Of a stretch of DNA of 64,000 nt, positions 1,114-64,000 are shown piece by piece. The position numbers and the translations under genes were made by a program. Location: assembly GCA_900544815.1 (NCBI GenBank), contig UQWT01000003.1:157-64156 (forward strand), read 5' to 3'. Source of the stretch: an uncultured Bacteroidales bacterium (GTDB lineage: Bacteria > Bacteroidota > Bacteroidia > Bacteroidales > UBA932). Under the pieces are notes generated by a model. That model saw nothing but the letters and a program-made list of their open reading frames with translations, ran no database searches and was not told where the DNA came from. Numbering within the stretch: the stretch's first letter is position 1; each line of letters begins with the position of its first letter.

Positions 1114-2046
1114 ATGCTTAAAGAGTATTTAAATAGCAACTATAGTGCAATCACAATCCTTGGTCCCACTGCAAGCGGAAAGACCAAAGCCGCTGTTGCA
1201 TTAGCACATAGAATAGAGAAACTTGCAGGCAAAAAGGCAGAGATTCTATCTGCCGATTCAAGGCAGGTTTACATTGGAATGGACATTGGCACCGGCAAAG
1301 ATATGGATGAGTACGGCAATGTTCCCGTTCACCTCATAGACATTGTTCCTGCCGGTGAAAAATACAATATCTTCCGCTACCAAAGAGACTTTTCAAAAGC
1401 ATACAGTCAAATAGTCGAGAAAGGGAATTTGCCAATAATATGCGGAGGTTCGGGACTTTACATAGAGGCTGCCACATGCGGATACGAACTTAAAGATGTT
1501 GACCCTAACCTGCAATTGAGGGCGGAATTAGAGCAGAAAACAATGGAGGAGCTTATAGCTATGTTCACAGACTTGAAGCTCAAAAACGGTACACAACCAC
1601 ACAACCACACAGATTTCGACACCAAAAAGAGGGTTATAAGAGCCATTGAAATAGAGATGGCGATTACCAAAAAAGAGCCTGCAAAAGAGTTTATTCCGCT
1701 TCCCGACAAAAACTCTATTCTCTTCCTTGGGGTAGATGTAGACAGAGAGACCCGCAACAAAAGAATAGACACCCGGTTGCAGAGCAGGCTTGAAGAGGGG
1801 ATGATAGATGAGGTAAAAAGGCTGTTAGACAGTGGGATAAAGGCAGAAGACCTAATCTATTACGGATTGGAATATAAATATGTGACACTTTACCTTACAG
1901 GAGAGTTAGAGTACAGTACAATGGTGGATAAACTGCAGACAGCCATTCACCAGTTTGCCAAAAGGCAGATGACGTGGTTTAGAGGGATGGAGCGCAAAGG
2001 GATAGAGATTAAATGGTTGCCGCTTGAAGAATTTTTAGGAGAATAA
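1114..2046 (+). CDS. miaA: tRNA dimethylallyltransferase
   Basis: P-loop ITILGPTASGKT and the SADSRQVYIGMDIGTGK motif; length about 310 aa. ATG at 1114 is preferred over the TTG at 1087 used by the ORF track. Confidence 0.9.
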   Translation: MLKEYLNSNYSAITILGPTASGKTKAAVALAHRIEKLAGKKAEILSADSRQVYIGMDIGTGKDMDEYGNVPVHLIDIVPAGEKYNIFRYQRDFSKAYSQIVEKGNLPIICGGSGLYIEAATCGYELKDVDPNLQLRAELEQKTMEELIAMFTDLKLKNGTQPHNHTDFDTKKRVIRAIEIEMAITKKEPAKEFIPLPDKNSILFLGVDVDRETRNKRIDTRLQSRLEEGMIDEVKRLLDSGIKAEDLIYYGLEYKYVTLYLTGELEYSTMVDKLQTAIHQFAKRQMTWFRGMERKGIEIKWLPLEEFLGE

Positions 2047-2099
2047 CTATTACCTGTCACCAAGTTGATATTTAATACCGGCTTATATTAATAAACGCT

Positions 2100-3230
2100 A
2101 TGATAAAGAATCTAATTGGAATGGCTGTTGCCACGCTACTTGCGCTGACTGCAAATTATGCAGCAGCCCAAAAGGCAAAAGATCTTAAGTACTACAATGT
2201 TAAAGAGCTTGTAAAAGAGGGTAAAGCCCATATTGTTAACCAAGCAGATTACGGAACCGGTTTCTTTACCCGGCTTCCGCAGCAGATGGAGGGAAAGGTA
2301 AGGAAACCTGTCTGGGACTTAGGGCAGAACAGCGCAGGCATAGCAGTCCTTTTCTGCACAGACAGTAAGGCTATAGGAGCAAAATGGACACTGCTCAACA
2401 ACTTTAGTATGGCACACATGCCTGGAACAGGAATCAGAGGATTAGACCTGTACAGCAGGATAGACAACCAATGGTATTTTACAGGAACAGCCCAGCCAAA
2501 CGGTAAGGAGAGCATGAATGTCTTTGCACGCAAATTGCAAGGAAACAGAATAGACTATATAATGTATCTTCCCCTTTACGATGGCATTACAGAACTTAAC
2601 ATTGGGATAGACTCATCTGCATCCTTTTATGAATCACATAAAGAGAAGTTAATCAATACCGCAAAAGCACCTGTCCTCTTTTACGGAACAAGCATAACGC
2701 AGGGAGGTTGTGCCTCTCGCCCAGGAATGGTCTACACCTCTATGGTACAGAGAACTTTAGGCATTGAAACCATAAACCTTGGATTTAGCGGCAACGGCAG
2801 AATGGACAGAATAATGGCAGATGCCATAGCAAAAGTAAAAACATCTGCTGTTGTAATAGACTGTCTGCCAAACTGTACCTATCAGATAATCAAAGACAGC
2901 GCAGACTATTTTGTAAGGACAATTGCAGCTGCAGATCCTCAAAGACCGGTGTTTTTAGTCTCTAATTTCAGATTCCCTGCATATTGGCTTACAGGTGATG
3001 ACCAGGCAGAGACAGAGAGGGAAAATACTCTTTGGAAAGAGACTGCAGACAAACTCAGGAAGGAGGGCTTTAAGAATATCCACTATATAGATATTGAGGG
3101 CAAGACAATGAAAGAGGCTGCCACAGGGCCGGATTACGAGTACACCGTAGATGGCATTCATCTAACAGATCTTGGCTTTATGCGAATGGGAGAATACTAT
3201 ACCAATATGCTCAAAAAATATACAAAGTAG
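2100..3230 (+). CDS. secreted SGNH/GDSL-family hydrolase
   Basis: N-terminal signal peptide. SGNH blocks FYGTSITQGG (Ser), GFSGNG and DGIHLTDLG (Asp-x-x-His). Confidence 0.7.
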   Translation: MIKNLIGMAVATLLALTANYAAAQKAKDLKYYNVKELVKEGKAHIVNQADYGTGFFTRLPQQMEGKVRKPVWDLGQNSAGIAVLFCTDSKAIGAKWTLLNNFSMAHMPGTGIRGLDLYSRIDNQWYFTGTAQPNGKESMNVFARKLQGNRIDYIMYLPLYDGITELNIGIDSSASFYESHKEKLINTAKAPVLFYGTSITQGGCASRPGMVYTSMVQRTLGIETINLGFSGNGRMDRIMADAIAKVKTSAVVIDCLPNCTYQIIKDSADYFVRTIAAADPQRPVFLVSNFRFPAYWLTGDDQAETERENTLWKETADKLRKEGFKNIHYIDIEGKTMKEAATGPDYEYTVDGIHLTDLGFMRMGEYYTNMLKKYTK

Positions 3231-3256
3231 CCCCTCATCTCACAAGATAAACATAA

Positions 3257-3299
3257 AAAGTCTGCCAAGGAACCACCTTTTGGCCGACTTTTTATTTTA
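3257..3299 (+). terminator. imperfect hairpin plus T-run downstream of the SGNH hydrolase gene
   Basis: aaagtctgccaagg...ccttttggccgacttt followed by tttattttag, located between convergent genes. Confidence 0.4.
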
Positions 3300-3343
3300 G
3301 CAAAGCTACAATAAATGCTACACTTTAGCATAATTAAGTAATC

Positions 3344-4510
3344 TTAAACAAACAACTCCCTAATAATACTGTCCGCCACAAAAAGATACCCCTTTGCTAT
3401 GGCATACTGCCTATCCCCACTACCCACGGGCACCAACTTTCCACTCTCTATATAAACAGACAACTGCCGCTCTATCTCTTTAAAAAATTCCGGGAACTCC
3501 GCTCTTAGCAAACCAAAATCCACTCCGTGGCATCTTCTTAACCCCAACATTATAGATTCATTGAACATATCCTCCTTGCTTAGAACTTCGCTTTCCAAAA
3601 TGTAGCCAAGCGGTAATCCGTCATTCAGACGGTCTTTATAATATTTTATGTATCCCGACAGATTATTCTTGTTCCAACTTCTCTCCATACCGTTATATGA
3701 ATGGGCGCCTGGTCCCAATCCCAAATACGGCACTTTTCTCCAATAAGAGCTGTTATGAATGGAACAGTATTCATCCGATATGGCAAAATTCGATATTTCA
3801 TACTGCAGATAACCTTTACTTAGAAGATAATCCTGCAAGAGGCTGTATTGTCGTGCACAATAATCATCAGATGGTGGAGTATACACCCCCTGCTCATACT
3901 GTTTTCCCAATGGGCTACCGGGATCTATACTCATCTGATATGCAGATATATGATTGGGCTTCAACTGAGTGATTGTTTGCAGATTATATCTCCATTGAGA
4001 GTCTGTAAGCAGCGAATAGCCAAAAATAAGATCTAAACTTATGTTGTTTATGCCTGCATTTCGCAGTAGCTCAACAGCAGAGATTGCCTCTGCCGCCGTA
4101 TAGCGCCTGTTCATCCATATTAGGTGTTCATCAACGAAAGATTGGACACCTAAACTAACTCTGTTTACCCCAAGAGCCACCAACGCCTCTGCATAATCCA
4201 AATTAATATCATTTGGATTGGCCTCTATGGTAAACTCTTTAAAATCTGCAGGAAAAACAGATTTTATTCCATCTATAAGCTCTGTCAACTGAGCAACTGT
4301 CAAACAAGAGGGGGTGCCCCCACCAATGTATAGTGTATGACACCCCTTTTCTGTTTTATCTGCCGGCGTATCAAAGAAACGACTCCTGCTTTCAGCCTCT
4401 TTAATTACAGCCTTAACATAATCGTCTCTACTGCCCAACCCTTTTACGGAATAAAAACTGCAATACCTGCAAAATGTCCTGCAAAACGGGATATGGACAT
4501 AGATATGCAT
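3344..4510 (-). CDS. hemW: radical SAM family heme chaperone / oxygen-independent coproporphyrinogen oxidase-like protein
   Basis: N-terminal IPFCRTFCRYCSF (CxxxCxxC radical-SAM motif), GGGTPS and a HemN-like C-terminal region; 388 aa. Confidence 0.85.
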   Translation of the reverse strand: MHIYVHIPFCRTFCRYCSFYSVKGLGSRDDYVKAVIKEAESRSRFFDTPADKTEKGCHTLYIGGGTPSCLTVAQLTELIDGIKSVFPADFKEFTIEANPNDINLDYAEALVALGVNRVSLGVQSFVDEHLIWMNRRYTAAEAISAVELLRNAGINNISLDLIFGYSLLTDSQWRYNLQTITQLKPNHISAYQMSIDPGSPLGKQYEQGVYTPPSDDYCARQYSLLQDYLLSKGYLQYEISNFAISDEYCSIHNSSYWRKVPYLGLGPGAHSYNGMERSWNKNNLSGYIKYYKDRLNDGLPLGYILESEVLSKEDMFNESIMLGLRRCHGVDFGLLRAEFPEFFKEIERQLSVYIESGKLVPVGSGDRQYAIAKGYLFVADSIIRELFV

Positions 4511-4533
4511 CTGCCTAAGAACCTTTACTTAAC

Positions 4534-5394
4534 TTACTTGAGCAGAAGGTCTGCACTTCCCAATTTGCCCTGTGTTGTATAGGCATCTACCGTGTAAACA
4601 CCCTTTGCAAGTTTCTCCGCAGGGGTAAAATATACACAAACTTCAACCTCCTCACCTTGATAGTCAACCTCTCTCGATGCAGAATATATCAACTCTTCAC
4701 CATTGAACTTGAATATATTCTGAGACCCGGATGTAAGCAATATTCCATCGGGACCTTTTATCCTTATATAAACCTCCATAAGGCCGCTCTTTGCTATACT
4801 GTTTTCTACAAGATTCAAGCATGTTTTGAGTTTTACAACCCTGCCGGCCTTTGCAATGAGTTTGCCATTATCTGAAATTCCTGTAAGAGTTACACCTCTG
4901 CCCTTTATTACAGAGCCTTTCTCAACCTGTTTTGAAAGATCTTCAGTAGTAGACTTAAGGTTATCGTATCTTTTTCTGCTCTCTTTTGCCTCTTTTCTTG
5001 CCTCCGCAGTCTCTTTTCTAAGGTTGTTATTAAGGGTATTAAGCGAGTCTATCTGTTTGATATAGCCTCTCATTATACTTCTGAGTGTACCCAACTCCTT
5101 TTCATATTTTCTAAGCTGGTATTTATTGTTAGCCTCTGTTTTCTTAACCCTTTCTATGAGTTGGGCCACCTTCTCCTTCTCTTTTGCAAGTTCACTGCTT
5201 AATGTATCGTTAGTGGTAGACAAATTAGAATAATCCTCCTGCAACTGCTGCATCTCAACTGTAAGTGTCTCCTTATCAACCGTAAGATCATTGATTAAAT
5301 TGTTTCTGTCTACCCATACATAGATGAGAACGCCTACCAGCAGAATGGCAACTCCGCCCAATACATAAATAATAGTCTTAAAATTTTTTTCCAT
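4534..5394 (-). CDS. membrane-anchored coiled-coil protein, function unknown
   Basis: One N-terminal TM helix (IIYVLGGVAILLVGVLIYVWV), a long charged heptad-like region and a beta-rich C-terminal domain. No motif I recognise. Confidence 0.5.
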   Translation of the reverse strand: MEKNFKTIIYVLGGVAILLVGVLIYVWVDRNNLINDLTVDKETLTVEMQQLQEDYSNLSTTNDTLSSELAKEKEKVAQLIERVKKTEANNKYQLRKYEKELGTLRSIMRGYIKQIDSLNTLNNNLRKETAEARKEAKESRKRYDNLKSTTEDLSKQVEKGSVIKGRGVTLTGISDNGKLIAKAGRVVKLKTCLNLVENSIAKSGLMEVYIRIKGPDGILLTSGSQNIFKFNGEELIYSASREVDYQGEEVEVCVYFTPAEKLAKGVYTVDAYTTQGKLGSADLLLK

Positions 5395-5614
5395 AATTTT
5401 AACGCTTTAAGTAGAAAATGAGAGCCCCTAAAAGTAATACTCTCCCTCCGTTTAACAAGTTGTACAAAATTCGCATACTTATTGCAACAAAAATATAGCC
5501 AAACGAGATAATCCATACCTTATTTGACTTGAGATACAAAAATAAGAAATAATATTTTTATATTTGCCAACAATAAGTTTTTTTGTTTTATCACATACAT
5601 AACGTAAATACATT

Positions 5615-6085
5615 ATGAAGTACTTTATTAGGTCTGTCAAATATTTTGTCTACATCGTAGTAATATTTATTATTCTTGTCAATATTATCTTCTACACATC
5701 ACAGAGACAGCCGGGAATAGACAATTTTACAGATCTGTTCAAGGATGGCTCATTGTGGCAGATGCTCGCTCTGTTTGTTGCATTCTCTGCCGTATATCCT
5801 ATCTTGGGCTATTACAACAAGAAGATTTATACTAACAACAATTTTGCAGCAAAGAAACAGTCTATTATAGATTATATGACTAATGGCGGAAGGTATATGT
5901 TAACCGATGATTCAAACGGACGTCTTACATTTAGAATAAAAAGCCCTTTTATAAGGTTCATGAGACTTTATGAGGATGCCATTGTTATAGACTACACAAG
6001 CAATCCTGTTATTATGAGCGGTCTTAGGAAGGAGGTTGTAAGATACAGCAGAAATATTGAAACCATTATCCAGAGTGAAGAGTAA
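5615..6085 (+). CDS. small membrane protein, function unknown
   Basis: Two predicted TM helices followed by a soluble tail; clean ATG ORF filling the intergenic gap. Confidence 0.45.
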   Translation: MKYFIRSVKYFVYIVVIFIILVNIIFYTSQRQPGIDNFTDLFKDGSLWQMLALFVAFSAVYPILGYYNKKIYTNNNFAAKKQSIIDYMTNGGRYMLTDDSNGRLTFRIKSPFIRFMRLYEDAIVIDYTSNPVIMSGLRKEVVRYSRNIETIIQSEE

Positions 6086-6144
6086 CTTTGGCATTGGCTA
6101 AGGCCAACTCTAACGCCAAAGCCAAAGCTGATAAACTATAAACC
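6086..6144. repeat. mosaic low-complexity intergenic repeat, copy A
   Basis: ggcattggctaaggccaac...cgccaaagccaaagc followed by ataaactataaacc. It uses the same GCCAAAGC hexamer-type and TATAAAC heptamer-type sub-motifs as copies B-F. It starts at the nucleotide after the stop codon at 6085. Confidence 0.6.
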
Positions 6145-6149
6145 AATAT

Positions 6150-6362
6150 ATGAGAGTTGTAAAAAGATACGAAAACGGTTTTAGCGCAAACCTTGCAAAA
6201 GGTATGTTAGAGAGCAACGGCATAGATGCCTGGATTCTCAATCCAAATCAGGCATTCTCTACCGGCTCCACTTTTGGTACACTTGGAATAGAATTAGCTG
6301 TTGCCGATGAAAACTATGATGAGGCCTGCAGACTTTTGGCAGCCTCTTCTAATGCAGAGTAA
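6150..6362 (+). CDS. small DUF2007-like (putative signal-transducing) protein
   Basis: 70 aa; the N-terminal pattern VVKRYENGFSANLAKGMLESNGIDAWILN resembles the DUF2007 family as I remember it. Confidence 0.45.
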   Translation: MRVVKRYENGFSANLAKGMLESNGIDAWILNPNQAFSTGSTFGTLGIELAVADENYDEACRLLAASSNAE

Positions 6363-6910
6363 AATTCCTCTCCAAAGTGGCTTGTTATAACTTCCCGCAG
6401 GAACTTATATACGGGAAGTCTCTCTTTCTTGCCCTTTTCAAATGCGCATTTGCATATATCCCATCTGTGAAGATTCAAAGCTGTATATCCGTTTGAAAGT
6501 TGAGACAGTCTTATTGGATATAGGGAACAGGATATTGGTTTTTTAAATCTGCTCCTCCCCGCACAATACGATTTTTCAATAGCGCAAAAACAGTTTTCAT
6601 TCTCATCAAAGCAGGTGTATGCACACTCCATCTTTCCAACAAGCGGCGTAACCAAATCTCCGTCTGTATCTATTTCGGCTACTCCGTTCTTCTCAATCAC
6701 AGCTATGCCACTTGATGTCATAAATGGTTTATAGAGAGGATAGTTATCCTCTAACTTTTCTATTTCGTCCTCCTCTACCGGTGCTCCACTGTCTCCTATA
6801 ATACAACAGCACCCCTTGCAGGTTTTATAATCACATGCAAAAAATTCTGTAAGGATGTCGGAAGAGACTAAATATCTATCTATTTCAAATATAAAACTTC
6901 TGTTTCTCAT
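6314..6910 (-). CDS. Cys-rich conserved hypothetical protein (DUF3109-like)
   Basis: FFACDYKTCKGCCC cysteine cluster plus further conserved Cys residues; about 198 aa. The family assignment is from memory only. Confidence 0.45.
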   Translation of the reverse strand: MRNRSFIFEIDRYLVSSDILTEFFACDYKTCKGCCCIIGDSGAPVEEDEIEKLEDNYPLYKPFMTSSGIAVIEKNGVAEIDTDGDLVTPLVGKMECAYTCFDENENCFCAIEKSYCAGRSRFKKPISCSLYPIRLSQLSNGYTALNLHRWDICKCAFEKGKKERLPVYKFLREVITSHFGEEFYSALEEAAKSLQASS

Positions 6911-6951
6911 GGATATCGTTATTTGTAGGGAATAGGATTGAAAAAAAGCCT

Positions 6952-9828
6952 TTAATAGCCAAAGAAATTACGTATAAACTCATCCTCCTTAAACAGTGTC
7001 CTTGTCTTTACATCATCTTCCGTTCCCTCCATAAGGAGATCTACCTGATTGCCGTACCCCACAAGATTTGTCATAAAGAGGTTAAAGTCTTTTGATGTTA
7101 TTCCATCTAAAACAGAGAGATAATCTTTATTAAAGTTTATATTGTACAACATTCGGTTTTCTAACACATCAAGCCAATATATATTCATATTGCATATCTG
7201 CTTAAAGTTTTCTTTGGCTTTGTTTACCGCTATATTAAACAGTGAATTATCTACACCATTCTTAAGTATGTTATCCAATATCCCAAGGTATGCCTCCTTT
7301 ACCACAAAAATATCTGAACTGTCTGCCACAAAGTTTGTATTAAGTACAAATATCTGTTCGGGATAATTGATAATCTTGGATGATGTTATAACATCTGTCG
7401 TAATCCTCCTTACAGGCGATTTTTCTATTGCAGCCTTTATATACGTCCTACAAAGGTCTGCCATTACATAATTCTTTATGTTAAAGTCGCACCCAATCGA
7501 ATTTGTGATGTTAAGATAACAGCGCGGCACCACCATCTCTGCGAAGAACTGCTTTGAGACTCTCCCTTTTGTAAGGTAGTTTGGCACAACCACTCCTGTC
7601 TCTCTTGCATCAGGGTTCCCTTTAAGGAGACTCAAGTATTTTACAGACAGATCTTTTATGATCATTGGGTCTATATTGCCGGTAAAAACAAATATAAAAT
7701 CTGCGGCATTGGCAAATCTGCCGTTTATCTGGTTATAGATTCTGTTATAATTAAGCCTTGCAATATCCTCCTTTGTCACTCTGCCTACATACCTTTTATT
7801 ACTGTTGTTATAATATGCTATACTGTCTGCAAAAAGATGAGTCGGCGACAGCATGTCATACTCGGATTCAAAGATTTTTGTCTTTTTATATAAATCAAAC
7901 GCCCTGTCATCTTTCCTTCTTTGAGCAAAGGAGAGGTACAAGGCTGTAAACAGCTCCTCTAATTTATTCATTGGTGCATAGCCGTAAACGATCTCCTTGT
8001 CCTGTTTGATTGCAGACTTCATGTCCATATCGTTGTATCGGTAAAGCCGTTCCAATTCTGACTGCATCACATTGGCAAGTCCTCCCATGTTTACAAGGTC
8101 GTTCATATATTTTTCGTTGCTTAGGGTAATGCCGTCCATCATGGAAAAGCCGCCTTTGCTGACAGCTCTTACAGAGACTGTATCTTTTGAATCTGTAGTC
8201 TGTTTGAAAACAACGGTAACGCCGTTAGGCAGATAGAACTCTTTGGCTCCTGTAAGCGGGTCTGTTCCCTCTTGAACATTAAGTGCGGTCTCCCTGTATG
8301 CTACATGAGGCCAACGGACCGTCTCCTTCTCTATCCTTTCCGGTGCTGCCGTAGCCAATGTCTCCTTAAAGGTGGAGTAGAGTCTCTCCTTTGAGATATT
8401 GTCCAACGACGGTCTGTCGGGAACTTTACACACTATCCTAAAATTCTCCTTATTGCCAAGCAGTGCCTTGGCATAATCGTTAAGTTGTGTTTGGGTAATG
8501 GCATAGACAATCTCCTTCATCATTTCAAACTTAAGCTCTATACTTGCCAATGAGTATCCGTAAAGGTAGTTGTCCAACAGCCTTTTGGAGAAGATGGCAT
8601 TGGGCTGGCTAAATCTATTGTCGTACAGGTTCTCTATATCCCTATAATATATATCTTTGGATTTAAGAAGTTCCTGTCCGTTGAATCCGAACTTTGCCAT
8701 CCTGTCTATCTCTGAACTAAGAAAACTTAATGTCTGGTAGATATTGTCGGGCAATGTCTCGTACGAAACGGAGATGAAGTTTTCGTCTGTGCTATATGGC
8801 GTCTCCTTTACCCTATACTCCACATTCCACACCGGCAGATTGTTCTTTAAAATTCCGTCTGATATTCTGGATGCCAACAACGCTAATATTGAGTTTGTCA
8901 TAAACTCCTGTATAAAAGGAACAGATGTGTTCTTGTATTTTGCAGGTAGTTCCGTTTTTATAAAGTCTATACTTACAGAGACTCTGTTGTACTCTTTGTC
9001 CTTCTGCAGACTTATAAAATTGGATCTGTCTATAGAGAGCTTCCTTGCCTCCGGCTTCCGGGTAAGCGGTTTTGGGATGGTTGAAAAGAGCGATGTTATT
9101 CTGGTCCTCACAGATGCTGTATCTATGTCTCCGCATACTATTATAGCCTGAAGATCCGGGCGAAACCATTTGTAATAAAAGTTCCTTAACTCCTTTGAGG
9201 TGAAACGGGGGGTGTGTGCCCATGGTTTCTGTTCTGCATCTTTGCTATTGTCTTTAAGAAAATCCTGGTTGCTCTTAAATGTTGTTCTGTTTTCGGCTGT
9301 CCAGAAATTTCTTACCCTATTATTATATAGTGTTTCTGCATTGTCTATATCCTCCTCATCTATGTTTATGGATGACATCCAGTTATATAGAATAAGCAGA
9401 GTTGAATCCGTTACATTGGAGTTTTTTAGCGGTACATTGTTTATGGAATATATTGTATTATTGTTGCCTGTATTGAACTGTATATCTTTTGGAGAGAGCC
9501 CCAAACCTGTAAGATATGTGGTGATTGTGGAATCAGGAAAGTTTCTTGTTCCTCTCAGCGAAAGCAGTTCTAACATCTTTAGCATACCTCTCTGATTATA
9601 ATCCTCTACATTCTCCCCTATCTTCTGTGCAAGTATAAAATCTGCATGCCCTTTAGCACCTGTATTCTTAAATAGATAGTATGTAAGCCCGTTTGCCAAT
9701 TTCCCGGTTTTCACCCTTGGATCTGTAGGCAGGGAGGCCACATCCTGCCCAAGGATACTACATGGTTCAACCAACATAAATAACAATAACAGTAAGAGAT
9801 ATGGTCTCCACGAACAATATGATTTCAT
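6952..9828 (-). CDS. M16 (pitrilysin/insulinase) family protein, predicted catalytically inactive
   Basis: Signal peptide; 958 aa. The N-terminal region aligns by eye to M16: KLANGLTYYL...NQRGMLKMLELLSLRGTRNFP. The HxxEH zinc motif position reads K-M-L-E-L. Confidence 0.65.
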   Translation of the reverse strand: MKSYCSWRPYLLLLLLFMLVEPCSILGQDVASLPTDPRVKTGKLANGLTYYLFKNTGAKGHADFILAQKIGENVEDYNQRGMLKMLELLSLRGTRNFPDSTITTYLTGLGLSPKDIQFNTGNNNTIYSINNVPLKNSNVTDSTLLILYNWMSSINIDEEDIDNAETLYNNRVRNFWTAENRTTFKSNQDFLKDNSKDAEQKPWAHTPRFTSKELRNFYYKWFRPDLQAIIVCGDIDTASVRTRITSLFSTIPKPLTRKPEARKLSIDRSNFISLQKDKEYNRVSVSIDFIKTELPAKYKNTSVPFIQEFMTNSILALLASRISDGILKNNLPVWNVEYRVKETPYSTDENFISVSYETLPDNIYQTLSFLSSEIDRMAKFGFNGQELLKSKDIYYRDIENLYDNRFSQPNAIFSKRLLDNYLYGYSLASIELKFEMMKEIVYAITQTQLNDYAKALLGNKENFRIVCKVPDRPSLDNISKERLYSTFKETLATAAPERIEKETVRWPHVAYRETALNVQEGTDPLTGAKEFYLPNGVTVVFKQTTDSKDTVSVRAVSKGGFSMMDGITLSNEKYMNDLVNMGGLANVMQSELERLYRYNDMDMKSAIKQDKEIVYGYAPMNKLEELFTALYLSFAQRRKDDRAFDLYKKTKIFESEYDMLSPTHLFADSIAYYNNSNKRYVGRVTKEDIARLNYNRIYNQINGRFANAADFIFVFTGNIDPMIIKDLSVKYLSLLKGNPDARETGVVVPNYLTKGRVSKQFFAEMVVPRCYLNITNSIGCDFNIKNYVMADLCRTYIKAAIEKSPVRRITTDVITSSKIINYPEQIFVLNTNFVADSSDIFVVKEAYLGILDNILKNGVDNSLFNIAVNKAKENFKQICNMNIYWLDVLENRMLYNINFNKDYLSVLDGITSKDFNLFMTNLVGYGNQVDLLMEGTEDDVKTRTLFKEDEFIRNFFGY

Positions 9829-10014
9829 AAATAGTGACGTCTTTTGATTAGCTTATCCAATATTTGTTGCTAAAATAATAATTTTAACGTTATCTGTTTG
9901 TTATTATCTCCATTTTTTCTATTTTTGGAATCATTTTCGCAGTAAGAGTCATAGGCTCCTGTTGCAGAAGATGTAACAAATGAGCGGACTAATAACATTT
10001 AACGACTAAATACA

Positions 10015-10950
10015 ATGAAACGTCTTTTTACTATTTTGGCGGTAGCATTTACTGCCGTACTATTTTCGGTTAACGCGTACGCACAAGATTTAGCTGCTGC
10101 TGCAGAGAACTACAAGAATGCAGCTGAGGCATTTAACGCAGGTAACAAAGTTGAGGCTTTGGCCGGTTTCCAAAAGGCATTGGAGGAGGCAACAGCTCTT
10201 GGAGATGAGGGAGCTGAGCTTGCTACAGAGTGCAAAAAACTTATTCCTACCGTACTTTTGGCTCTTGGTAAAGATTGCGTAACAAACAAGGATATGGACA
10301 AAGCTGTAGAGTATCTTAACCAAGCTATAACTATTGGTAAAGAGTTTGAGCAGACAGAGGTTGAGAATGAAGCAAAAGAACTTGTTCCTGTAGTTCTTAT
10401 GGCAGACGGAGACTCTATGCTTAATGAGGGTAAATTTGCAGAGGCTGCTGCAAGATACAACGAGGTATTGGCTATTGACCCTGAGAATGCAACCGCATAT
10501 ATAAGAACAGGTATGTGCCAATCTAAATTGGGAAATGAGGCTGCCGCTATTGAGGCTTACACAAAGGCTGCAGAAAAAGGAGAGAAAGATGCAGCATACA
10601 AACAGCTCAATACGATGTACGTAAACAAAGCTGTTACAGCGTTCAAGGCAAAAGATAACGCAGGCGCCCTTGACAATGCGCTAAAAGCAGGCGAGTACGG
10701 GGAGAATTTTAATTCAGACAAAATTGGTGGTATTGCAGCTTTCAACCTTAAGAAGAATGATACTGCAATTAAACTTTTGGAGCAGGCTGTAAAGGCTAAT
10801 CCTAATGCAACAGATATAAGATATTACTTAGCAAGAGCATACGAGGCTAAAGGGAACAAGGTAAAAGCAGTTGAGAACTACAAGAAGATTGTAGGAGATG
10901 CTAAGTTCAAGGCTTTTGCAGAGCAGAAGATCAAAGCTCTTGGCGCTTAA
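10015..10950 (+). CDS. secreted TPR-repeat protein
   Basis: Signal peptide. Repeated Ala/Leu/Tyr/Asn-rich 34-residue-like helical units (e.g. AEAAARYNEVLAIDPENATAYIRTGMC, YYLARAYEAKGNKVKAVENYKKI). Confidence 0.6.
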   Translation: MKRLFTILAVAFTAVLFSVNAYAQDLAAAAENYKNAAEAFNAGNKVEALAGFQKALEEATALGDEGAELATECKKLIPTVLLALGKDCVTNKDMDKAVEYLNQAITIGKEFEQTEVENEAKELVPVVLMADGDSMLNEGKFAEAAARYNEVLAIDPENATAYIRTGMCQSKLGNEAAAIEAYTKAAEKGEKDAAYKQLNTMYVNKAVTAFKAKDNAGALDNALKAGEYGENFNSDKIGGIAAFNLKKNDTAIKLLEQAVKANPNATDIRYYLARAYEAKGNKVKAVENYKKIVGDAKFKAFAEQKIKALGA

Positions 10951-10954
10951 TCCA

Positions 10955-12916
10955 ATGACAAAAGAACTGGAACTTTTAGCTCCGGCAAAAAATAAGGAGA
11001 TCGGCATTGCGGCTATAAACTGCGGTGCCGATGCCGTATATATTGCAGCCGAATCTTTTGGAGCACGTGAAGCTGCCGGCAATAGCATTGGAGATATTAA
11101 GGAGCTGTGCTACTACGCACATAAATTTCATGCAAAGATTTTTGTGGTGGTAAACACTATCCTTTATGATAATGAAACGGAGTCCGCCGCCAAACTTATA
11201 TGGGATCTCTACATGGCCGGGGCCGATGCAATAATCGTACAGGATCTTGGGGTACTCAGGCTCAATCTACCCCCAATTCCCTTATATGCATCAACTCAGA
11301 CAGATATAAGAGATACAGGAAAAGCCAAGTTGTTGGAAAAGTTAGGGTTCAGTAGACTTATAGTTGCAAGAGAGTTGAGCCTCAGACAAATTGCAGAGAT
11401 CGCCTCAAATACAGATGTTGATATTGAAACCTTTGTGCATGGAGCGCTCTGTGTAAGCTATAGCGGACAATGTTATCTTAGCGCGAGATTAACAGGAAGA
11501 AGTGCAAACAGAGGGGCATGTGCACAGGCTTGCAGAAACAACTATGATCTTATTGACGCCAACGGCAAAAGGCTTATCCGCAACAGCCATCTTCTCTCTC
11601 TAAAGGATTTTAATCTGAGCAGACGCATTGCAGATTTGGTAAAAGCCGGCGTTTCGTCGTTTAAGATTGAAGGCAGACTTAAGAATGAATCATTTGTAAA
11701 AACGGCTGTCTTGTTGTATAACAGCAGAATAAACGATTTTTTAAATTCAGCTGATGGTGCAGGCTACAGTCGTGGCTCATTAGGCAGTATTGAAACAACC
11801 GCACAGCCTAATGCAGAAGTTACATTCAATCGTGGGTTTACTGAATTTTTCATAGATGGCAAAAGGGGGGAATGGAGAAGTGAGGAGAGTGCTAAATATC
11901 TTGGCGAGTACATTGGGAGCGTTGTCTCAAGCAGAATAAACAGAGCCGGATTCATGGAGTTTACATACAAGTCGCCCAAACAGATAGTAAACGGAGACGG
12001 GTTATGCATTACAGACAGTAAGGGAAATATTACAGGCATAAGAGCCAACAACTGTAACACAACGGCAAAACAGGTTACAACTACATCAAAGGAGATTGTA
12101 AAAGCCGGAAGCAGCATATTTAGAAATTACAATTACATTTATGAGAAACAGCTTGACAAGGGCAACACAGAGAGGTTTATTCCGTTGGAAGTCACATTTA
12201 TTCAAAAAGGTGAGTGTTCCTCTTTTAAGATTGAATGCCATACGCAGGGGGTAAAGAGATCTGTCATCTCCTTTATTTATGATGTAAAGTATCCTTTCCA
12301 AAGGGCCAACAACCGTGAATCTGCAGAGAGGAACATAAAATTGCAGTTCTCTAAAAGGAGTTGTCATTTTACCTTTTCGCTAAAGGAATTTTATATAAAT
12401 GGGGCTACTCTGCCGTTTTTCCCTATATCAGAGCTGAATGCAATGAGAAACGAGATAGCCGAAATTGCCTCTCGAAAACTTGAGGATCTGCGTATTTTAG
12501 AAAAAAGACAAGAGGAGGAGAGAGAGGTTGCAAGGAGAGCCCGCAGAGATAGCTATATTAAAGGTATTCGCAATGGCGAGGAGAATCAAATATTTTATAG
12601 CCAGAACATCACAGACCAAAGGTGGCAGCCATATATGCTTAACGCATCAAACAGGTTATCAAAAGGGTTATACAGTGAGCTTGGAATATCCTCTTCCGCG
12701 TCATCTTACGAACTGAGCCCCGTAAAGGAGGCTGTGCTTATGCGCACCAAGTATTGTATAAAGTACCAGTTGGGAATCTGTAAGAGAGATTTGTCGGGAA
12801 GAAAAGGTATCCTATCAAATACAGATTTTAAGGAACCTCTCTTTCTATGCAATAATGAAAAGAAATTCAGGCTCGTTTTTGACTGTTCAAAATGCGAGAT
12901 GATGGTAATTGGATAA
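10955..12916 (+). CDS. peptidase U32 family protein
   Basis: MTKELELLAPAKNKEIGIAAINCGADAVYI...FGAR, then IFVVVNT and ARELSLRQI with an ETFVHGALCVSYSGQCYLS core typical of U32. ATG at 10955; the upstream extension in the ORF track overlaps the TPR gene. Confidence 0.8.
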   Translation: MTKELELLAPAKNKEIGIAAINCGADAVYIAAESFGAREAAGNSIGDIKELCYYAHKFHAKIFVVVNTILYDNETESAAKLIWDLYMAGADAIIVQDLGVLRLNLPPIPLYASTQTDIRDTGKAKLLEKLGFSRLIVARELSLRQIAEIASNTDVDIETFVHGALCVSYSGQCYLSARLTGRSANRGACAQACRNNYDLIDANGKRLIRNSHLLSLKDFNLSRRIADLVKAGVSSFKIEGRLKNESFVKTAVLLYNSRINDFLNSADGAGYSRGSLGSIETTAQPNAEVTFNRGFTEFFIDGKRGEWRSEESAKYLGEYIGSVVSSRINRAGFMEFTYKSPKQIVNGDGLCITDSKGNITGIRANNCNTTAKQVTTTSKEIVKAGSSIFRNYNYIYEKQLDKGNTERFIPLEVTFIQKGECSSFKIECHTQGVKRSVISFIYDVKYPFQRANNRESAERNIKLQFSKRSCHFTFSLKEFYINGATLPFFPISELNAMRNEIAEIASRKLEDLRILEKRQEEEREVARRARRDSYIKGIRNGEENQIFYSQNITDQRWQPYMLNASNRLSKGLYSELGISSSASSYELSPVKEAVLMRTKYCIKYQLGICKRDLSGRKGILSNTDFKEPLFLCNNEKKFRLVFDCSKCEMMVIG

Positions 12917-54324: not shown

Positions 54325-54942
54325 ATGAGACCGAACACAAAAAAACTTGATAAGGGGAAAAAGAGTTTTTCACAAAAACCGCTATCTCCGCAGGAGGCAA
54401 TCTTAAATGAGAAGAAACTGCTCAGGAAAAAAATAAAGGAGCTTAAAGAGGAGATGAGCCTGCCTGAAAGGAATGCCGTCTCTATGGTTACCCTTGCCAA
54501 ATTGGAGGCAGAGCCTGAGTTCAAATATGCCCGTACCTTTTTAATCTATTTTTCACTTCCCGACGAGATACAGACAGAGGCTTTTATAGACAAGTGGCAT
54601 TCACTTGGTAAGAGGGTGGTACTTCCTTTGGTGGTTGGGGATGATCTTGTCTTAAAGGAGTATGATCCCAAGAAGCTGCAAGAGGGGTATAAAGGAATTT
54701 ATGAACCCACAGAGGATTCTGCCACGGTTGAACCGTCTGAAATAGACCTTGCAATTATTCCCGGGGTTGCTTTTGATTATAAAGGTAACAGAATGGGGCG
54801 CGGGAAAGGGTTTTATGACAGATTCCTGCCAAAACTCACATGCCCTGTATGGGGTGTTGCCTTCCCTTTCCAGATGGTTAAGGAGATTCCATGCGAGGAG
54901 TTTGATAAGCCTGTAGATAAGGTGTTCTTCATAAACGAATAA
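54325..54942 (+). CDS. 5-formyltetrahydrofolate cyclo-ligase
   Basis: IPGVAFDYKGNRMGRGKGFYDRFL motif; 205 aa. Confidence 0.8.
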   Translation: MRPNTKKLDKGKKSFSQKPLSPQEAILNEKKLLRKKIKELKEEMSLPERNAVSMVTLAKLEAEPEFKYARTFLIYFSLPDEIQTEAFIDKWHSLGKRVVLPLVVGDDLVLKEYDPKKLQEGYKGIYEPTEDSATVEPSEIDLAIIPGVAFDYKGNRMGRGKGFYDRFLPKLTCPVWGVAFPFQMVKEIPCEEFDKPVDKVFFINE

Positions 54943-56705: not shown

Positions 56706-56921
56706 TTGTGTATATGTTAATTGTGTTTTAAATTCTATATGATTTGTTGTTTTGAAGACAGTAAAAGGCAGACCGCTGCCCTTTACAGGCTTTTGCTACA
56801 AAGTTAAAATAAAAACCATTCTATTGTGTAATAAGATGGTAAATACCGCTTATTTGGTACGCAATGTTGTCAAATGAAAGAAAACGCAAATTGTCGGGAA
56901 GAAAAAAGCTCAAATATATAA

Positions 56922-59258: not shown

Positions 59259-61898
59259 CTAAAACTTATATTTAATACCTACCGTAATCTCCCTTCCCCT
59301 CAATCTGTAATTAGTTAAATAGAACGAAAGCGAACCTATTGAGGAGTTTGAAAAGCTCTTTTTATTAAAGATATTATTTACAGAGGCATTCAGCTCAATT
59401 TTTTTTGCCACCATATATTGCAGATAAAGGTTAGACAACACTATGTTCTTGTCTGTATTTGTTGCTGAGTTGTAGTAATGATCTGCAGAAAGGTCCAACG
59501 ACAGACGTCTTATAGGCGTAGCGGAAAAGGTCATACTCTGCTTTATATAATCTGCAGATGATTCTCCAACATAGGAGTCCGGCTGTTTCATCTTAAGGTT
59601 TGTATAGCTACAGCTATAATCCAATGAGCCCCACATGCTTATAGCGGCATTTATGCTCCCTGTTACGGTTGTGCTGTAAGATTTATAGTCAAACAGATTG
59701 TTGTTCTGAACCATCTTCCCGCTGTTTACGGCATAATTTGCAGTAAAGCCAACCTTACCGCCTATTGCCCTAACATCTTTTGAAATCTCCGCACTTGCAT
59801 TATAGCTTTCGCTCTTTGTATCCCCCTTTCTAAATCCTGTTGCAATTATCTTTCCGTCAAAGTCTCTTACACTTATAAGGCCGTTTGAATAATGGACATA
59901 TGAGGCAGAGAGGTTTACATAGAACAACGCAAGCGGGTCCCTATAAGAAAATCTTGCATCAACAAGACTGTTTTTGTTTGAGGCTTCTACCTTACTGCCC
60001 CTAATTACATTTCTATAATTTGTATAGATATATCCCTCAAAAGCATATTTGTCAGATACAGGACTCTCTCCAAAAGAGGCATTCAGCTGTAATTCTGTCT
60101 TTTGGCTTATATTCCACCTAAAATAATAAAGGAAAGGGGAGATATATGTATCGTCATACCATGTTTTGTAATACTTTACAGGTATCTTTACACTCATAAG
60201 CAAATCATCGCTCCTATATTGCACATACGGAGTGGCTGTTATTACGTACTTATTTAAATTACCATACTCTTTCATATTTCTCCACACCCCCTCTCCCGAA
60301 CCCGAAATAGCAAAATTCCATCTGCTTACAGCTATTTTATACTCAATCTCCTCGTATGTTGCAAAAGCGTTTATATTCAGTTTTTGGTAAAAAGGGGCCT
60401 CAACAGAACCATCCTTATCTATTACATTAACCACCCCGAGCCTTTCAATTGCAGACACATATTTATTTACGCTCTTAAAACTTAGCGATTTACCATGCTC
60501 AAACACACTTAGCAGATTAAAATTATTCTCCACATAATATTCAGAGTTTTGAGTATGCTGCATTGCAGAATATGAACCGGTAAAAACATCATTTTGACTG
60601 CTGTTTTCAAGATAAGCGCTTAGTCTGTTTTTCAAAAACCGTTTGCTTCCGTTTGCAGACAAAGTAATATCCCCTGTCAATTTATGAACACCTCCATTCA
60701 TCTCTATGTCATTATAGTTGTGAATAATACTGTCCTTAAGGTAATAATCGCTTATAGAACCCTTCCATGCCTTTTGCTTATCGTATGAATAACATAGATT
60801 ACTCTTTAACTCATAATCATTTTTAAATCTCCTAAGATTGTTCGTAGAAGCAAGAATACTCTTGTTAAAGGTTGTGTACATGCTCCCCAAATTTGGGATA
60901 GCCATACTCTCTTCACAGGTATAATTTGGCAGCTCATAACTGTAATTGTTAGAAGAAGATATACTCTCCAAGTCTAACTTGGATGCAGCCTCATCCCTTA
61001 ACACCACTCCTGTATTGTTTGTCTTGATATTGTTCATGCTCTGTACACCTTTACCTATGCTCATTGCAAAAACGCGCCCGTTCCACAATTCATAATTGCC
61101 ACTTAAACTAATATCTCCAAGCCATTTGGCCTTAGCCGTCTCCTTTAGTTTTATATTAAGAGCAGCCCTGTCACTAAACCTCACATCCTTTAAAGCCTTT
61201 ACAGGCTGATGGTTCTCCAATACCTCAACTTTGGCTATATCCTTTGGATTAAGGTTATTGGTGGCCAATCCATACCTTCCTCCAAGAAGATCAGCCCCCT
61301 CTATGTAGAATTTGTTTATAGGCTCTCCGTTGTACTTTACGTTACCACCGCCATCCACCTCAATACCAGGAATACGTTTAAGCACATCTGCTAATGCCCT
61401 GTCTGTAGATTTAGCAAAACTCTCTACATTAAAGACAATGGTATCGCCCCTCATCTGCACCTTTGGAGCCCTCACAACCACCTCCTTAAGTTTGAACGAC
61501 GCCTCTTTGAGCACAACATTCGCAACCTCCTTAACCCCCTGTTCATCAAGCACAATCCTCCTCTCCTCATACCCCATGTAAGAAAACACCAACGCTGCAC
61601 GACCCTCTGCCGCATTGATTTTTGCCACAATTTCCTGCTTAATTGAAAACGCTCCGTTTCTGTCTGTTGTAGCATAGCCCAACATCTCCTCTTTTTTTAT
61701 CTCTTTGCTTCCCGACAAAACATCTTTTTCCACTTTTACCACCTTTACTACAACACCAGCCAAAGGCTCTCCGCCGGAATCCTTTACAACCCCTTTCAGC
61801 TCCTTAACACTGCCAACCGAATAGCCAAAAACAGGCACAAGCAGAATTGCAACAGCAACAAGCAACACCACCGGTACAACAAAACACTCACATTTCAT
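59259..61898 (-). CDS. outer-membrane beta-barrel protein with a carboxypeptidase-regulatory-like domain and a plug-like segment (TonB-dependent-receptor-like)
   Basis: LKGVVKDSGGEPLAGVVVKVV, ALADVLKRIPGIEVDGGGNVKYNGEPINKFYIEG and the C-terminal ...ITVGIKYKF. Confidence 0.65.
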   Translation of the reverse strand: MKCECFVVPVVLLVAVAILLVPVFGYSVGSVKELKGVVKDSGGEPLAGVVVKVVKVEKDVLSGSKEIKKEEMLGYATTDRNGAFSIKQEIVAKINAAEGRAALVFSYMGYEERRIVLDEQGVKEVANVVLKEASFKLKEVVVRAPKVQMRGDTIVFNVESFAKSTDRALADVLKRIPGIEVDGGGNVKYNGEPINKFYIEGADLLGGRYGLATNNLNPKDIAKVEVLENHQPVKALKDVRFSDRAALNIKLKETAKAKWLGDISLSGNYELWNGRVFAMSIGKGVQSMNNIKTNNTGVVLRDEAASKLDLESISSSNNYSYELPNYTCEESMAIPNLGSMYTTFNKSILASTNNLRRFKNDYELKSNLCYSYDKQKAWKGSISDYYLKDSIIHNYNDIEMNGGVHKLTGDITLSANGSKRFLKNRLSAYLENSSQNDVFTGSYSAMQHTQNSEYYVENNFNLLSVFEHGKSLSFKSVNKYVSAIERLGVVNVIDKDGSVEAPFYQKLNINAFATYEEIEYKIAVSRWNFAISGSGEGVWRNMKEYGNLNKYVITATPYVQYRSDDLLMSVKIPVKYYKTWYDDTYISPFLYYFRWNISQKTELQLNASFGESPVSDKYAFEGYIYTNYRNVIRGSKVEASNKNSLVDARFSYRDPLALFYVNLSASYVHYSNGLISVRDFDGKIIATGFRKGDTKSESYNASAEISKDVRAIGGKVGFTANYAVNSGKMVQNNNLFDYKSYSTTVTGSINAAISMWGSLDYSCSYTNLKMKQPDSYVGESSADYIKQSMTFSATPIRRLSLDLSADHYYNSATNTDKNIVLSNLYLQYMVAKKIELNASVNNIFNKKSFSNSSIGSLSFYLTNYRLRGREITVGIKYKF

Positions 61899-61912
61899 AA
61901 AATTTCCTACTT

Positions 61913-62833
61913 TTATTCAATGATTTTCTCTATTGGATCATACCCACGGCTGCTACTAACCGAAGCATCATTCACATTCACGGTTATCTTAGACTTTCTA
62001 ATCTCGGCAGGAGTAAGTTCTCTGCCTGTACTTGCATCAAACACCTTGACCGTTGCACCTCCCGAAGCAGTGATATAGCCAACAGGATCCTCAATATAGC
62101 GCTTGTATGTTTTGATAAATTTTTCAAATGATGTCTTTACATACTTTTTATTTGTAAACTCTATAGGCTTTCTACACTCCTGAATACCGTCCAATTCCCA
62201 TGAATAGTGTCCCTGCCTATCCGCAACTTTTAATATCAGTCCCGGAAGCCCTCTGAATTTCCATGGCCCCGCATTCACCGGGACATCCGGAGCAAACCAT
62301 GCAATATAATCCCTACCTCTAAAACTGCAGGTTGCCATATTACATTCATATCCGGCAATATTCTTTACGGAATCCTGCACAACAATCCAATTGAAATCCG
62401 GAATCTTCTCTATGTAAGATATATTGTCTACACCCACTTTGGTTACCTCACAGAGGTTATCTCCCTGTGTGTACATATAAGATTGCGTACCGGTCTTGTA
62501 TTTGGAAATAGCCGCAACTTTGGCATTTACATCCATGTTAGATTTAGAGAGAGCCTTAAAGACAGAATCCCTTACCATCTCTAATTTACTTATATAACTT
62601 GTTGCATTACGGCCTATAAGCAGCAACATCTCGTCGTCAGTGACCTTGTCTTTGTCTAATGTATCTTTTAAATACCAATATTTATATGAACACTCCAAAA
62701 AGGCATTGTCCATTTGGCCTGTGGCAAACTCTTTGCTATTGTTGTTCTGTGCTCCCAAAACATTGCTTAAAGCAATGGCAGATAATTGCAATACAACTAT
62801 CCGCAGAATCTTTTTAAATGCAGTCATAATCAT
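61913..62833 (-). CDS. GLPGLI family protein
   Basis: Contains the eponymous motif FRGLPGLILKV; signal peptide; 306 aa. It is adjacent to the OM barrel gene, as is typical for this family. Confidence 0.8.
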   Translation of the reverse strand: MIMTAFKKILRIVVLQLSAIALSNVLGAQNNNSKEFATGQMDNAFLECSYKYWYLKDTLDKDKVTDDEMLLLIGRNATSYISKLEMVRDSVFKALSKSNMDVNAKVAAISKYKTGTQSYMYTQGDNLCEVTKVGVDNISYIEKIPDFNWIVVQDSVKNIAGYECNMATCSFRGRDYIAWFAPDVPVNAGPWKFRGLPGLILKVADRQGHYSWELDGIQECRKPIEFTNKKYVKTSFEKFIKTYKRYIEDPVGYITASGGATVKVFDASTGRELTPAEIRKSKITVNVNDASVSSSRGYDPIEKIIE

Positions 62834-63059
62834 TCTTTTAATTCAGTGTCCTATTTGATTGCTGCAAAGTAACCCACAAAAAGAGTGTCTATATATTATT
62901 TGGTGATTAAGAAGTGTTAATAAATGTTAACACTATAGAATTAAAATCTTTTTCAGTTTTCCATGCAAGATTTTAAGAAAAGAGGATTTAAGGATATAGG
63001 AATGTTGTTAGTTAGTCAATTATAATTTTAAAATTAATGTAAAATGAAAAAAACTATTT

Positions 63060-63082
63060 AGCTGTTAAAAGCCATAACAGCT
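63060..63082 (-). terminator. candidate intrinsic terminator of rsmA
   Basis: agctgtta-N7-taacagct overlaps the stop codon. On the minus strand it is followed by aaatagttttttt. Confidence 0.45.
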
Positions 63083-63870
63083 TATAGTAGCAAAAATAGA
63101 TTTGTAAGATATACAAACTCCTCTACCGAAAGCTGTTCCGGGCGTTTATCCAATATGGGATCCTGAATCTCTATACCTAATTTGGCTGCTATTGGTTTTA
63201 TTGAATTTCTTATGGTTTTCCTGCGTTGGTTAAAACAGGCTTTTATAATCTGCTTAAACAGTTGGGGATCACAACCCAATTCTTTATTATCGTTCCTAAC
63301 AAGCCTTATTACGCCGGATTTCACCTTAGGCGGAGGAAGAAAGACATGCTCCGGTACGGTAAAAAGATACTCCATATTGTACCACGCCTGCAAAAGCACA
63401 GATAGTATTCCGTATGATTTGTTCCCCGGAGGGCTTACCAAACGTTCAGCCACCTCTTTCTGAAGCATACATACAACCTGAGGTACTAAATTAGGATCTT
63501 CCAATATCTTAAAAAAAATCTGAGACGATATATTGTACGGGAAATTCCCTATTATGCTAAACGGTTCACCGGCAAAAGCATCCCGCAGATTCATCTGCAA
63601 AAAATCTCTTTGCACCAAAGACGACAACGAATACGGGTATGTTGCCTTTAGATATTCTATAGATTCCGTATCTATCTCCGCAAGCTCCAACCTTACCCTC
63701 TCATCCTCTATAAGATACTTTGTAAGTACCCCTGTCCCCGGCCCTATCTCCAATACATTGTTGGACAACCTTGTCTCATCATTTATCCTTAGTGCATCAA
63801 CAATCCCCTTTGCAATTCCTTCATCCTTAAGAAAATGCTGGCCCAATGCCTTCTTTGCCTTAACTATCAT
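63082..63870 (-). CDS. rsmA: 16S rRNA (adenine1518/1519-N6)-dimethyltransferase
   Basis: KKALGQHFLKDEGIAKGIVDAL, LEIGPGTGVLT and GNFPYNISS. ATG at 63870 is preferred over the TTG at 63915. Confidence 0.9.
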   Translation of the reverse strand: MIVKAKKALGQHFLKDEGIAKGIVDALRINDETRLSNNVLEIGPGTGVLTKYLIEDERVRLELAEIDTESIEYLKATYPYSLSSLVQRDFLQMNLRDAFAGEPFSIIGNFPYNISSQIFFKILEDPNLVPQVVCMLQKEVAERLVSPPGNKSYGILSVLLQAWYNMEYLFTVPEHVFLPPPKVKSGVIRLVRNDNKELGCDPQLFKQIIKACFNQRRKTIRNSIKPIAAKLGIEIQDPILDKRPEQLSVEEFVYLTNLFLLL

Positions 63871-64000
63871 AATATGTACCGTTCTCTTCCCGACAAAATT
63901 AGCACTTTTTGTCAACAGTACATAATGCAGGTTATTTGTCTTTTTGTAAATACAGTTATCAGAAAAAAATGGAGAAAAAAGAAATTATATAAAAAATAAC

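Follow-up and report, generated by a model that had tools for sequence, protein, structure and literature searches.

A dispersed 11-nucleotide word with a one-base dialect in uncultured gut Bacteroidales, a candidate DNA uptake sequence

The 64,000-nt stretch of contig UQWT01000003.1 analyzed here (the window), from an uncultured Bacteroidales bacterium, carries 14 exact copies of a non-palindromic 11-mer, CTTCCCGACAA (reverse complement TTGTCGGGAAG), nine on the plus strand and five on the minus strand. The copies occur in unrelated genes and in intergenic DNA, many are kept at orthologous positions in sister species, and one sister species carries a version that differs at a single base. The extended unit K-CTTCCCGACAA-W may well be a lineage-specific DNA uptake enhancing sequence (DUES) with dialects, analogous to the DNA uptake sequence (DUS) of Neisseriaceae and the uptake signal sequence (USS) of Pasteurellaceae, a reading that is given a probability of roughly 0.55. 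A receptor that reads the word during uptake, and natural transformability of the host, are inferred by analogy with those two systems.

Abundance, anatomy and coding context of the word

All 14 copies were re-found at the positions and on the strands given in the initial annotation of the window, which had also called the word strongly over-represented; this holds, with ~0.01-0.03 copies expected from shuffles and masked Markov models. Dinucleotide-preserving shuffles predict 0.03 copies, and the Markov comparison proposed in that annotation, run on the window at orders 2-5 with the copies masked before training, predicts 0.008-0.02, corresponding to an excess of ~700-1700-fold (~1000-fold). 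An order-5 expectation of 1.3 copies is circular and inflated, since the copies were left in the training data of that model. No other word in the window is as strongly over-represented, and together with its sub-words it tops all 9- to 13-mers. Only five one-mismatch copies exist (24748, 25177, 39234, 44952, and 54556), two more than the three that had been listed, the additions being 24748 and 44952.

Contig DAIPQI010000003.1 of the metagenome-assembled genome (MAG) GCA_036779675.1 contains the window at 100% identity, and the host is common in human gut metagenomes, with the kbl protein indexed in 502 collection blocks. Proteins of the genus derive from ENA, Logan, and NCBI data, with none from JGI. 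At ~99.5% identity, strains retain the copies except for a single polymorphism at 16861. Density in the window is ~1 per 4.6 kb. It is not limited to the window, because same-species DNA beyond it holds seven more copies in 17.7 kb, including copies from a strain whose locus adjoins a ribosomal-protein operon (a rearranged neighborhood); confinement to the window, the outcome under which the initial annotation would have given up its proposal, was thus not found. This brings the species to 21 copies over 81.7 kb (1 per 3.9 kb). As a background control, 80 viral loci (800 kb), all retrieved with a 14-mer that includes the word (GCTTCCCGACAAAA), yielded no further copy of it; in 80 species loci from other Bacteroidales (1.3 Mb) there are five, confined to the nearer relatives L008, L011, L018, and L034. 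No copy was found in ~15 kb of strain-variable DNA (P ~ 0.02), comprising an Rhs/DUF6443 island (~26.1-34.6 kb), a methylase island in locus L089, and another variable stretch, but a 10.5-kb stretch of core DNA is also empty, so that depletion of the word in accessory DNA is no more than suggestive.

The conserved unit is ~12-13 bp long, K-CTTCCCGACAA-W, with the core TCCCGACA. Among the window copies, the base 5′ of the word is G in eight and T in six, and the 3′ flank is A/T-rich, with A or T mostly the next base, both as originally described. An information profile of 42 non-orthologous TCCCGACA sites, pooled from the window species and three sister species, contains ~13 informative positions, K-C-T-TCCCGACA-A-W, with a weak preference for T at -8 and -11 and no signal further out. 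The word had been reported to lie outside any longer repeat, and this is borne out by repeat families that reach at most 20-27 nt, with weakly similar T-rich flanks, and by a mean flank identity among copies of ~0.34. An Rfam search of the window returned no match.

Unrelated housekeeping genes contain 11 of the 14 copies, and the other three are non-coding (26112, 56891, and 63886). The gene assignments made initially (miaA, U32 peptidase, PSP1, polyprenyl synthase, outer-membrane barrel, kbl, PspC, methyltransferase, RNase HII, glycerate kinase, and outer-membrane receptor) agree with Pfam tables, and the copy at 63886, placed in a leader, does lie ~10 codons 5′ of the likely ksgA start. The word had been said to occur in every reading frame. 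It does occur on both strands and in coding as well as intergenic DNA, but the 11 coding copies use only three of the six strand and frame combinations, read as LPD(K/N) in four cases, LSG(R/S) in five, and (F/V)VGK in two, a restriction with P ~ 0.01 under equal use of the six. The frames without copies would require the rarest arginine codons, CGA and CGG. The word itself uses the rarest synonymous codons of its host, namely TCG (8% of Ser), GTC (10% of Val), CCC (13% of Pro), and GGG (15% of Gly), and because codon preference runs against the word, the constraint acts on DNA. A protein-motif reading was rejected on the basis of the three frames, two strands, and intergenic copies. The constraint is on the DNA word and not on a protein motif, in agreement with the initial annotation, and the same conclusion is reached from kbl, where VVGK is kept by synonymous codons in a species without the word. 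A tendency toward gene ends was also found, with five of the 11 coding copies within the terminal 10% of their gene (P = 0.05).

Conservation and a one-base dialect in sister species

Homologs of two window proteins define a tight group of ~5 species followed by a large gap. Syntenic loci of the sister species were aligned with MAFFT. Species A (loci L217, L218, and L226; ~87% DNA identity) has six, four, and four exact copies, and species B (L221 and L225; 72-78% identity) has five and seven, at densities similar to that in the window species. The 22-kb locus L225 of species B also contains 13 copies of TCCCGACAA, and the 5′ CT is more relaxed there. In the alignments, copies stand at orthologous positions in both species while their flanks have diverged. 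Seven of 11 sites are identical in species A, compared with 27% of random 11-nt windows (P = 0.012), and the summed mismatches are five against 15.6 expected (P = 0.004). In species B, five of nine sites are identical against 10% expected (P = 0.001), and two further sites are simply absent, which leaves the summed mismatches of that species not significant (P = 0.19). The comparison of orthologous sites suggested in the initial annotation therefore finds the word kept above background in both species, and as judged from these alignments it is maintained through synonymous drift.

The third sister species has a different form. In ~55 kb from this species, hereafter the GATA species (L007, L219, L223, L224, L227, and L228; 76-81% identity; MAGs GCA_963636615.1, GCA_963635675.1, and GCA_963628325.1), there is no TCCCGACA, and the species carries CTTCCCGATA instead. 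At sites 1699, 12791, 20882, 48911, and 54556 the sole difference from the window is C9→T, giving CTTCCCGATAA or CTTCCCGATGA at the last four of these. The remaining ancestral sites have one to five mismatches and mostly retain C9; in kbl, for example, the peptide VVGK is intact and three synonymous positions differ. An out-of-sample locus, L227 (21 kb, of which 18 kb is new), has no TCCCGACA and seven copies of TCCCGATA, its top 10-mer is CTTCCCGATA with five copies, and its miaA ortholog of site 1699 differs by C9→T only within strongly diverged flanks. New GATA copies are also present where the other species have no word, as in a HemN-like gene for which the window has CTTTCCAAAAT. A deamination hot spot at C9 was considered and rejected, since the pattern is bimodal, with decayed sites that mostly keep C9 and T9 sites that are otherwise intact. 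Concerted change of a single base at many scattered loci implies that the word is read in trans, by a factor that changed its specificity in the GATA species.

Related words extend somewhat beyond this group. Locus L009 (90% kbl identity, 47% GC) has no exact 11-mer and has TCCCGACAR 11 times in 16 kb (1561-12525), with one inverted pair (4762-4790) as a potential hairpin, and it looks like a dialect of a broader clade with a common core. Milder enrichment of the core with other flanks is seen in L011 and L035.

A candidate uptake sequence weighed against its rivals

Under the proposed mechanism, a trans-acting competence receptor at the cell surface would bind the ~12-bp word in double-stranded DNA in either orientation, and fragments bearing the word would be preferentially imported and recombined. 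Point mutations that create the word would then spread and those that destroy it would be lost, by molecular drive with or without selection, and copies would accumulate wherever the protein code allows, also by way of rare synonymous codons. A shift of receptor specificity in one species would keep the C9→T sites, let the others decay, and give rise to new GATA sites.

The closest parallels are the two known families of uptake sequences. Like the Neisseriaceae DUS (GCCGTCTGAA, or the 12-mer AT-DUS), the word is a non-palindromic element of 10-12 bp whose core is strict and whose 5′ extension is weaker, found on both strands in coding and non-coding DNA at ~1000-fold excess, with single-base variants around a common core. 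It differs in its unrelated sequence, its phylum, and a density that is three to four times lower, in having no inverted pairs or terminator association within the window, and in that no ComP-type minor pilin or receptor was identified. Like the Pasteurellaceae USS (AAGTGCGGT and ACAAGCGGT types), it lies mostly in genes, in restricted frames and in permissive protein parts, has A/T-rich flanks, and exists as two subclade-specific variants of one word, but its sequence is again unrelated and it has no periodic AT-tracts beyond the weak T at -8 and -11. Judged by sequence, the word is not a member of the DUS and USS families but an analogue. A 2025 survey lists uptake sequences for Neisseriaceae and Pasteurellaceae only, with lengths of 9-10 nt and hundreds to thousands of copies, and describes DUES as showing one-base dialects, frame bias, and accumulation in permissive or poorly conserved gene parts. 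The uptake-sequence analogy drawn in the initial annotation gains from the orthologous conservation and from the one-base dialect of the sister species. To our knowledge, the combination of features found here has been described only for the uptake sequences of those two families.

Several points weigh against an uptake function. No competence gene (comEC, dprA, comF, pilus or secretin genes, or a ComP-like receptor) was seen in ~80 kb. Type IV pili, which carry the known or proposed receptors, are absent from most known Bacteroidales, and the reader would therefore be a different protein. The density of 1 per 3.9-4.6 kb is three to four times below that in Neisseria and Haemophilus, and the 10.5-kb core stretch at 34.6-45.1 kb is empty of exact copies. 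Terminator-like hairpins are not found at any of the three intergenic copies, the one at 56891 included, where a terminator scan was negative, and no inverted pairs of the word occur within the window; roughly half of DUS and USS copies are reported in terminators (2025 survey).

A Chi-type signal for recombination or repair, which an AddAB- or RecBCD-like enzyme or another repair nuclease would read on one strand and which would be selected genome-wide and co-evolve with that enzyme, would share several features with the word. Chi sites are likewise dispersed in genes and intergenic DNA and species-specific, the density of the word (~1 per 4-4.6 kb) is near that of Chi in Escherichia coli, and a change of the reading enzyme should also produce variants specific to a species. 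Raw GC skew in the window tracks gene orientation and gives no replichore signal, but when skew at 4-fold sites is split, a replication component of -0.125 remains for the plus strand (95% CI -0.19 to -0.06), so that the window probably lies in a single replichore with the minus strand leading, and the G-rich orientation of the word is then on the inferred leading strand in nine of the 14 window copies. This 9:5 ratio is within the range that GC skew would predict for a G-rich word. Over 35 distinct sites, mapped to window orientation, the ratio is 19:16, which, assuming a single replichore, fits 50:50 (P = 0.74) and rejects 75% polarity (P = 0.006), and the Chi- or KOPS-type alternative mentioned in the initial annotation is not supported, given this lack of polarity. 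Known Chi sequences are also only 5-8 nt long with a modest, few-fold excess and strong co-orientation with replication, as opposed to the ~12-13 specified positions, ~1000-fold excess, and non-polar distribution seen here, which makes a Chi-type signal rather improbable.

A binding site for some other trans-acting protein, such as a nucleoid or chromosome-organization factor or a defense system for which the word marks self from non-self, with a specificity that changed in the GATA species, is unlikely but deserves consideration, as the dialect switch and the orthologous conservation need only a trans-acting reader and not uptake, and the absence of copies from the Rhs and methylase islands fits a marker of self. 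FtsK-orienting polar sequences (KOPS) and other architecture-imparting sequences are similarly short, chromosome-wide, non-palindromic, and read in trans, but these 8-mers are oriented toward dif, with a strand polarity above 80-90%. The sites of parS, matS, SlmA, and Noc are palindromic, far rarer, and regional, whereas the word is non-palindromic and recurs about every 4 kb in every neighborhood sampled. No system is known to us in which an exact 11-12-mer is selected at such density for that role, and a strong drive is implied by what the word costs in rare codons. The cyanobacterial highly iterated palindrome HIP1 (GCGATCGC) is likewise short and hyper-abundant, found in all contexts, and kept at orthologous sites, and a comparable origin would couple biased, Vsr-like mismatch correction to a word-specific DNA methyltransferase, so that near-cognates are converted to the word. 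This would account for exact copies far outnumbering one-mismatch neighbors (14 to five) and for a dialect difference that is a C→T transition, the type linked to cytosine methylation. HIP1, however, is an 8-bp palindrome linked to methyltransferases, while the word is asymmetric and its 11-13 specified bases far exceed known methyltransferase motifs; the decay is bimodal with C9 mostly kept, new GATA sites arose from unrelated sequence, and in the DNA examined the word has no linked methyltransferase or Vsr gene. A HIP1-type process is accordingly regarded as improbable to a marked degree. Ordinary by-products, meaning relics or ends of mobile elements, a repeated peptide, an assembly artifact, or chance, are scarcely credible. 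The weak T-rich similarity a few bases 5′ of the word speaks for such an origin, but repetitive extragenic palindromic (REP) sequences, miniature inverted-repeat transposable elements (MITE), and other dispersed repeats have a longer, usually palindromic, intergenic unit, and the word lacks both a repeat family longer than 20-27 nt and shared flanks. A mobile-element relic and a sequencing artifact were rejected in view of the unrelated flanks and of independent assemblies from many samples, in which the word stands in-frame in conserved housekeeping genes; its three frames, two strands, and intergenic positions exclude a repeated peptide, and the expectation of 0.008-0.03 copies excludes chance.

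No genomic sign of species-specific natural transformation is clearer than an uptake sequence. A full-text literature search for the word returned primers only and never a motif, and literature on uptake sequences in Bacteroid*, Porphyromonas, and Bacteroidales contained nothing relevant. If uptake is confirmed, the word would mark the first system of this kind outside Proteobacteria, independently evolved in a different phylum, and a third, unrelated uptake system, in abundant uncultured human-gut Bacteroidales whose populations would then be shaped by homologous exchange through transformation. The word could then serve as a tag that separates core from acquired DNA and by which metagenomic contigs are placed in the genus. 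The GACA/GATA pair of sister species would provide a natural experiment in which comparison of surface or competence proteins could identify the receptor, and addition of the word to transforming DNA could make these organisms genetically tractable. Even without an uptake receptor, the coordinated switch shows an exact 11-12-mer to be read in trans about every 4 kb. A broader proposal, held tentatively and at somewhat less than even odds, is that the genus of GCA_036779675.1 and its relatives with the TCCCGACA core have self-DNA-specific transformation with dialects and a receptor unrelated to the type IV minor pilins that are known or proposed in this role, the first outside Proteobacteria, and that uptake-specificity words are perhaps common and repeatedly evolved in Bacteroidales. 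The last part draws on other dispersed words in rumen and gut Bacteroidales.

Most hits of a de novo word search in 80 relatives were tandem repeats, beside one CRISPR-like array and, in L086, a protein motif that is repeated; only L022/L021 (ATCGCTGAGG), L039/L042, and L009 look like genuine dispersed words. A rumen Bacteroidales lineage (MAGs RGIG7951 and RGIG10221; L022, 1868-20651, and L021, 662, 9668, and 11132) carries ATCGCTGAG(G), of which eight copies with flanks of unrelated sequence are spread over both strands of 21 kb. Three orthologous copies are kept between the two MAGs, and this may represent a second, independent word system. The sequence AGCCTCGGC, found on both strands seven times in 21 kb of L039 (407-16707) and three times in 11 kb of L042 (2778, 4491, and 8840), is a candidate lineage-specific word. 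The CRISPR-like array, at positions 1-500 of L070, comprises seven direct repeats (…TTTGAAATAGTGTAAACACC) with ~77-nt spacing at a contig end.

Individual copies and other features of the window

Four coding copies are read as LPDK or LPDN. Those at 1699-1709 (plus strand, miaA, IPPT family), 45169-45179 (minus strand, an MTS methyltransferase gene), and 50927-50937 (minus strand, codon 37 of a glycerate kinase gene) lie in sense orientation and encode LPDK; the second is exact in L226 and absent from L225 and L223. The copy at 14137-14147 (plus strand) covers codon 17 of PSP1, encodes LPDN, is exact in L217 and L221, and has decayed to CTTGCCGACAA in L219.

The five copies read as LSGR or LSGS include 12791-12801 (minus strand), near the 3′ end of the U32 peptidase gene, where the mRNA carries TTGTCGGGAAG and encodes LSGR; this site is exact in L217, has one mismatch in L221, and shows C9→T in L219. 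The other four are on the plus strand, antisense to their genes. Among them, 18008-18018 (LSGR) lies in an outer-membrane beta-barrel gene and has one to two mismatches in sister species, 20882-20892 (LSGS) lies in a long PspC gene and is exact in L217 and L221 despite diverged flanks, with C9→T in L219, 48911-48921 (LSGR) lies in the RNase HII gene and is exact in L226 and L225, with C9→T in L223, and 61708-61718 (LSGS) covers codon 61 of a CarbopepD_reg outer-membrane receptor gene and is exact in L226.

Of the two (F/V)VGK copies, 16861-16871 (plus strand) is antisense to the polyprenyl synthase gene, six codons before its end, reads FVGK, and is the polymorphic site, with G→T in strains L001 and L003. 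The other, at 19847-19857 (minus strand), encodes VVGK in kbl with the rare codons GTC and GGG, is exact in L217 and L221, and corresponds to TTGTTGGAAAA, with its three synonymous changes, in the GATA species.

Two copies are intergenic. That at 26112-26122 (plus strand) adjoins a hexamer tandem repeat at the edge of the strain-variable Rhs island and is present in L217, and that at 56891-56901 (minus strand) lies 20 nt 3′ of the stop codon of a response-regulator gene. The third non-coding copy, at 63886-63896 (plus strand) in the ksgA 5′ leader, precedes a conserved, likely start, MIVKAKKALGQHFL. The one-mismatch copies are CTTCCCTACAA at 24748-24758 (plus strand), for which the L217 ortholog is the exact word, CTTCCCGACAG at 25177-25187 (minus strand), with the identical variant in L217, CCTCCCGACAA at 39234-39244 (plus strand), CTTCCCCACAA at 44952-44962 (plus strand), for which the L225 ortholog is the exact word, and CTTCCCGACGA at 54556-54566 (plus strand), which is kept in L226 and L225 and is CTTCCCGATGA in the GATA species.

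The Rhs/YD-repeat island (DUF6443, TseH) at 26038-34618 is strain-variable, has a higher GC content of 44-46%, and contains no copy of the word. It is flanked by 32-nt direct repeats (26038-26069 and 34587-34618) that are 91% identical, is missing in strain L001, where 26078 is joined to 34587, and has other DNA in its place in L004 and L006. The island at 1-5134 of L089, also without copies, replaces the gcvP region upstream of smpB and encodes a 1000-aa N6_Mtase/Eco57I/helicase protein and DUF4121.

Intergenic hexamer tandem repeats, (TTGGCT/TTAGCT)n, occur at 26125-26172, 29713-29878, 35165-35220, and 49361-49391, and comparable intergenic tandem repeats with units of 7-8 nt are found in the Bacteroidales loci L044, L049, L051, L064, L069, and L071. 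A conserved 19-nt element, TTTTTTTAGATTACWTAGA, is located in intergenic DNA upstream of genes at 19038-19056, 26062-26080, and 34612-34630, and could be a shared promoter or leader element. Among the loci compared, L007 is labeled Acutalibacteraceae and L052 Oscillospiraceae, both contigs having typical Bacteroidales gene content, and Candidatus Egerieisoma, the label on L011 and L013, is placed under Clostridiaceae in the NCBI taxonomy; these labels probably reflect mis-binned contigs and a misplaced taxon.

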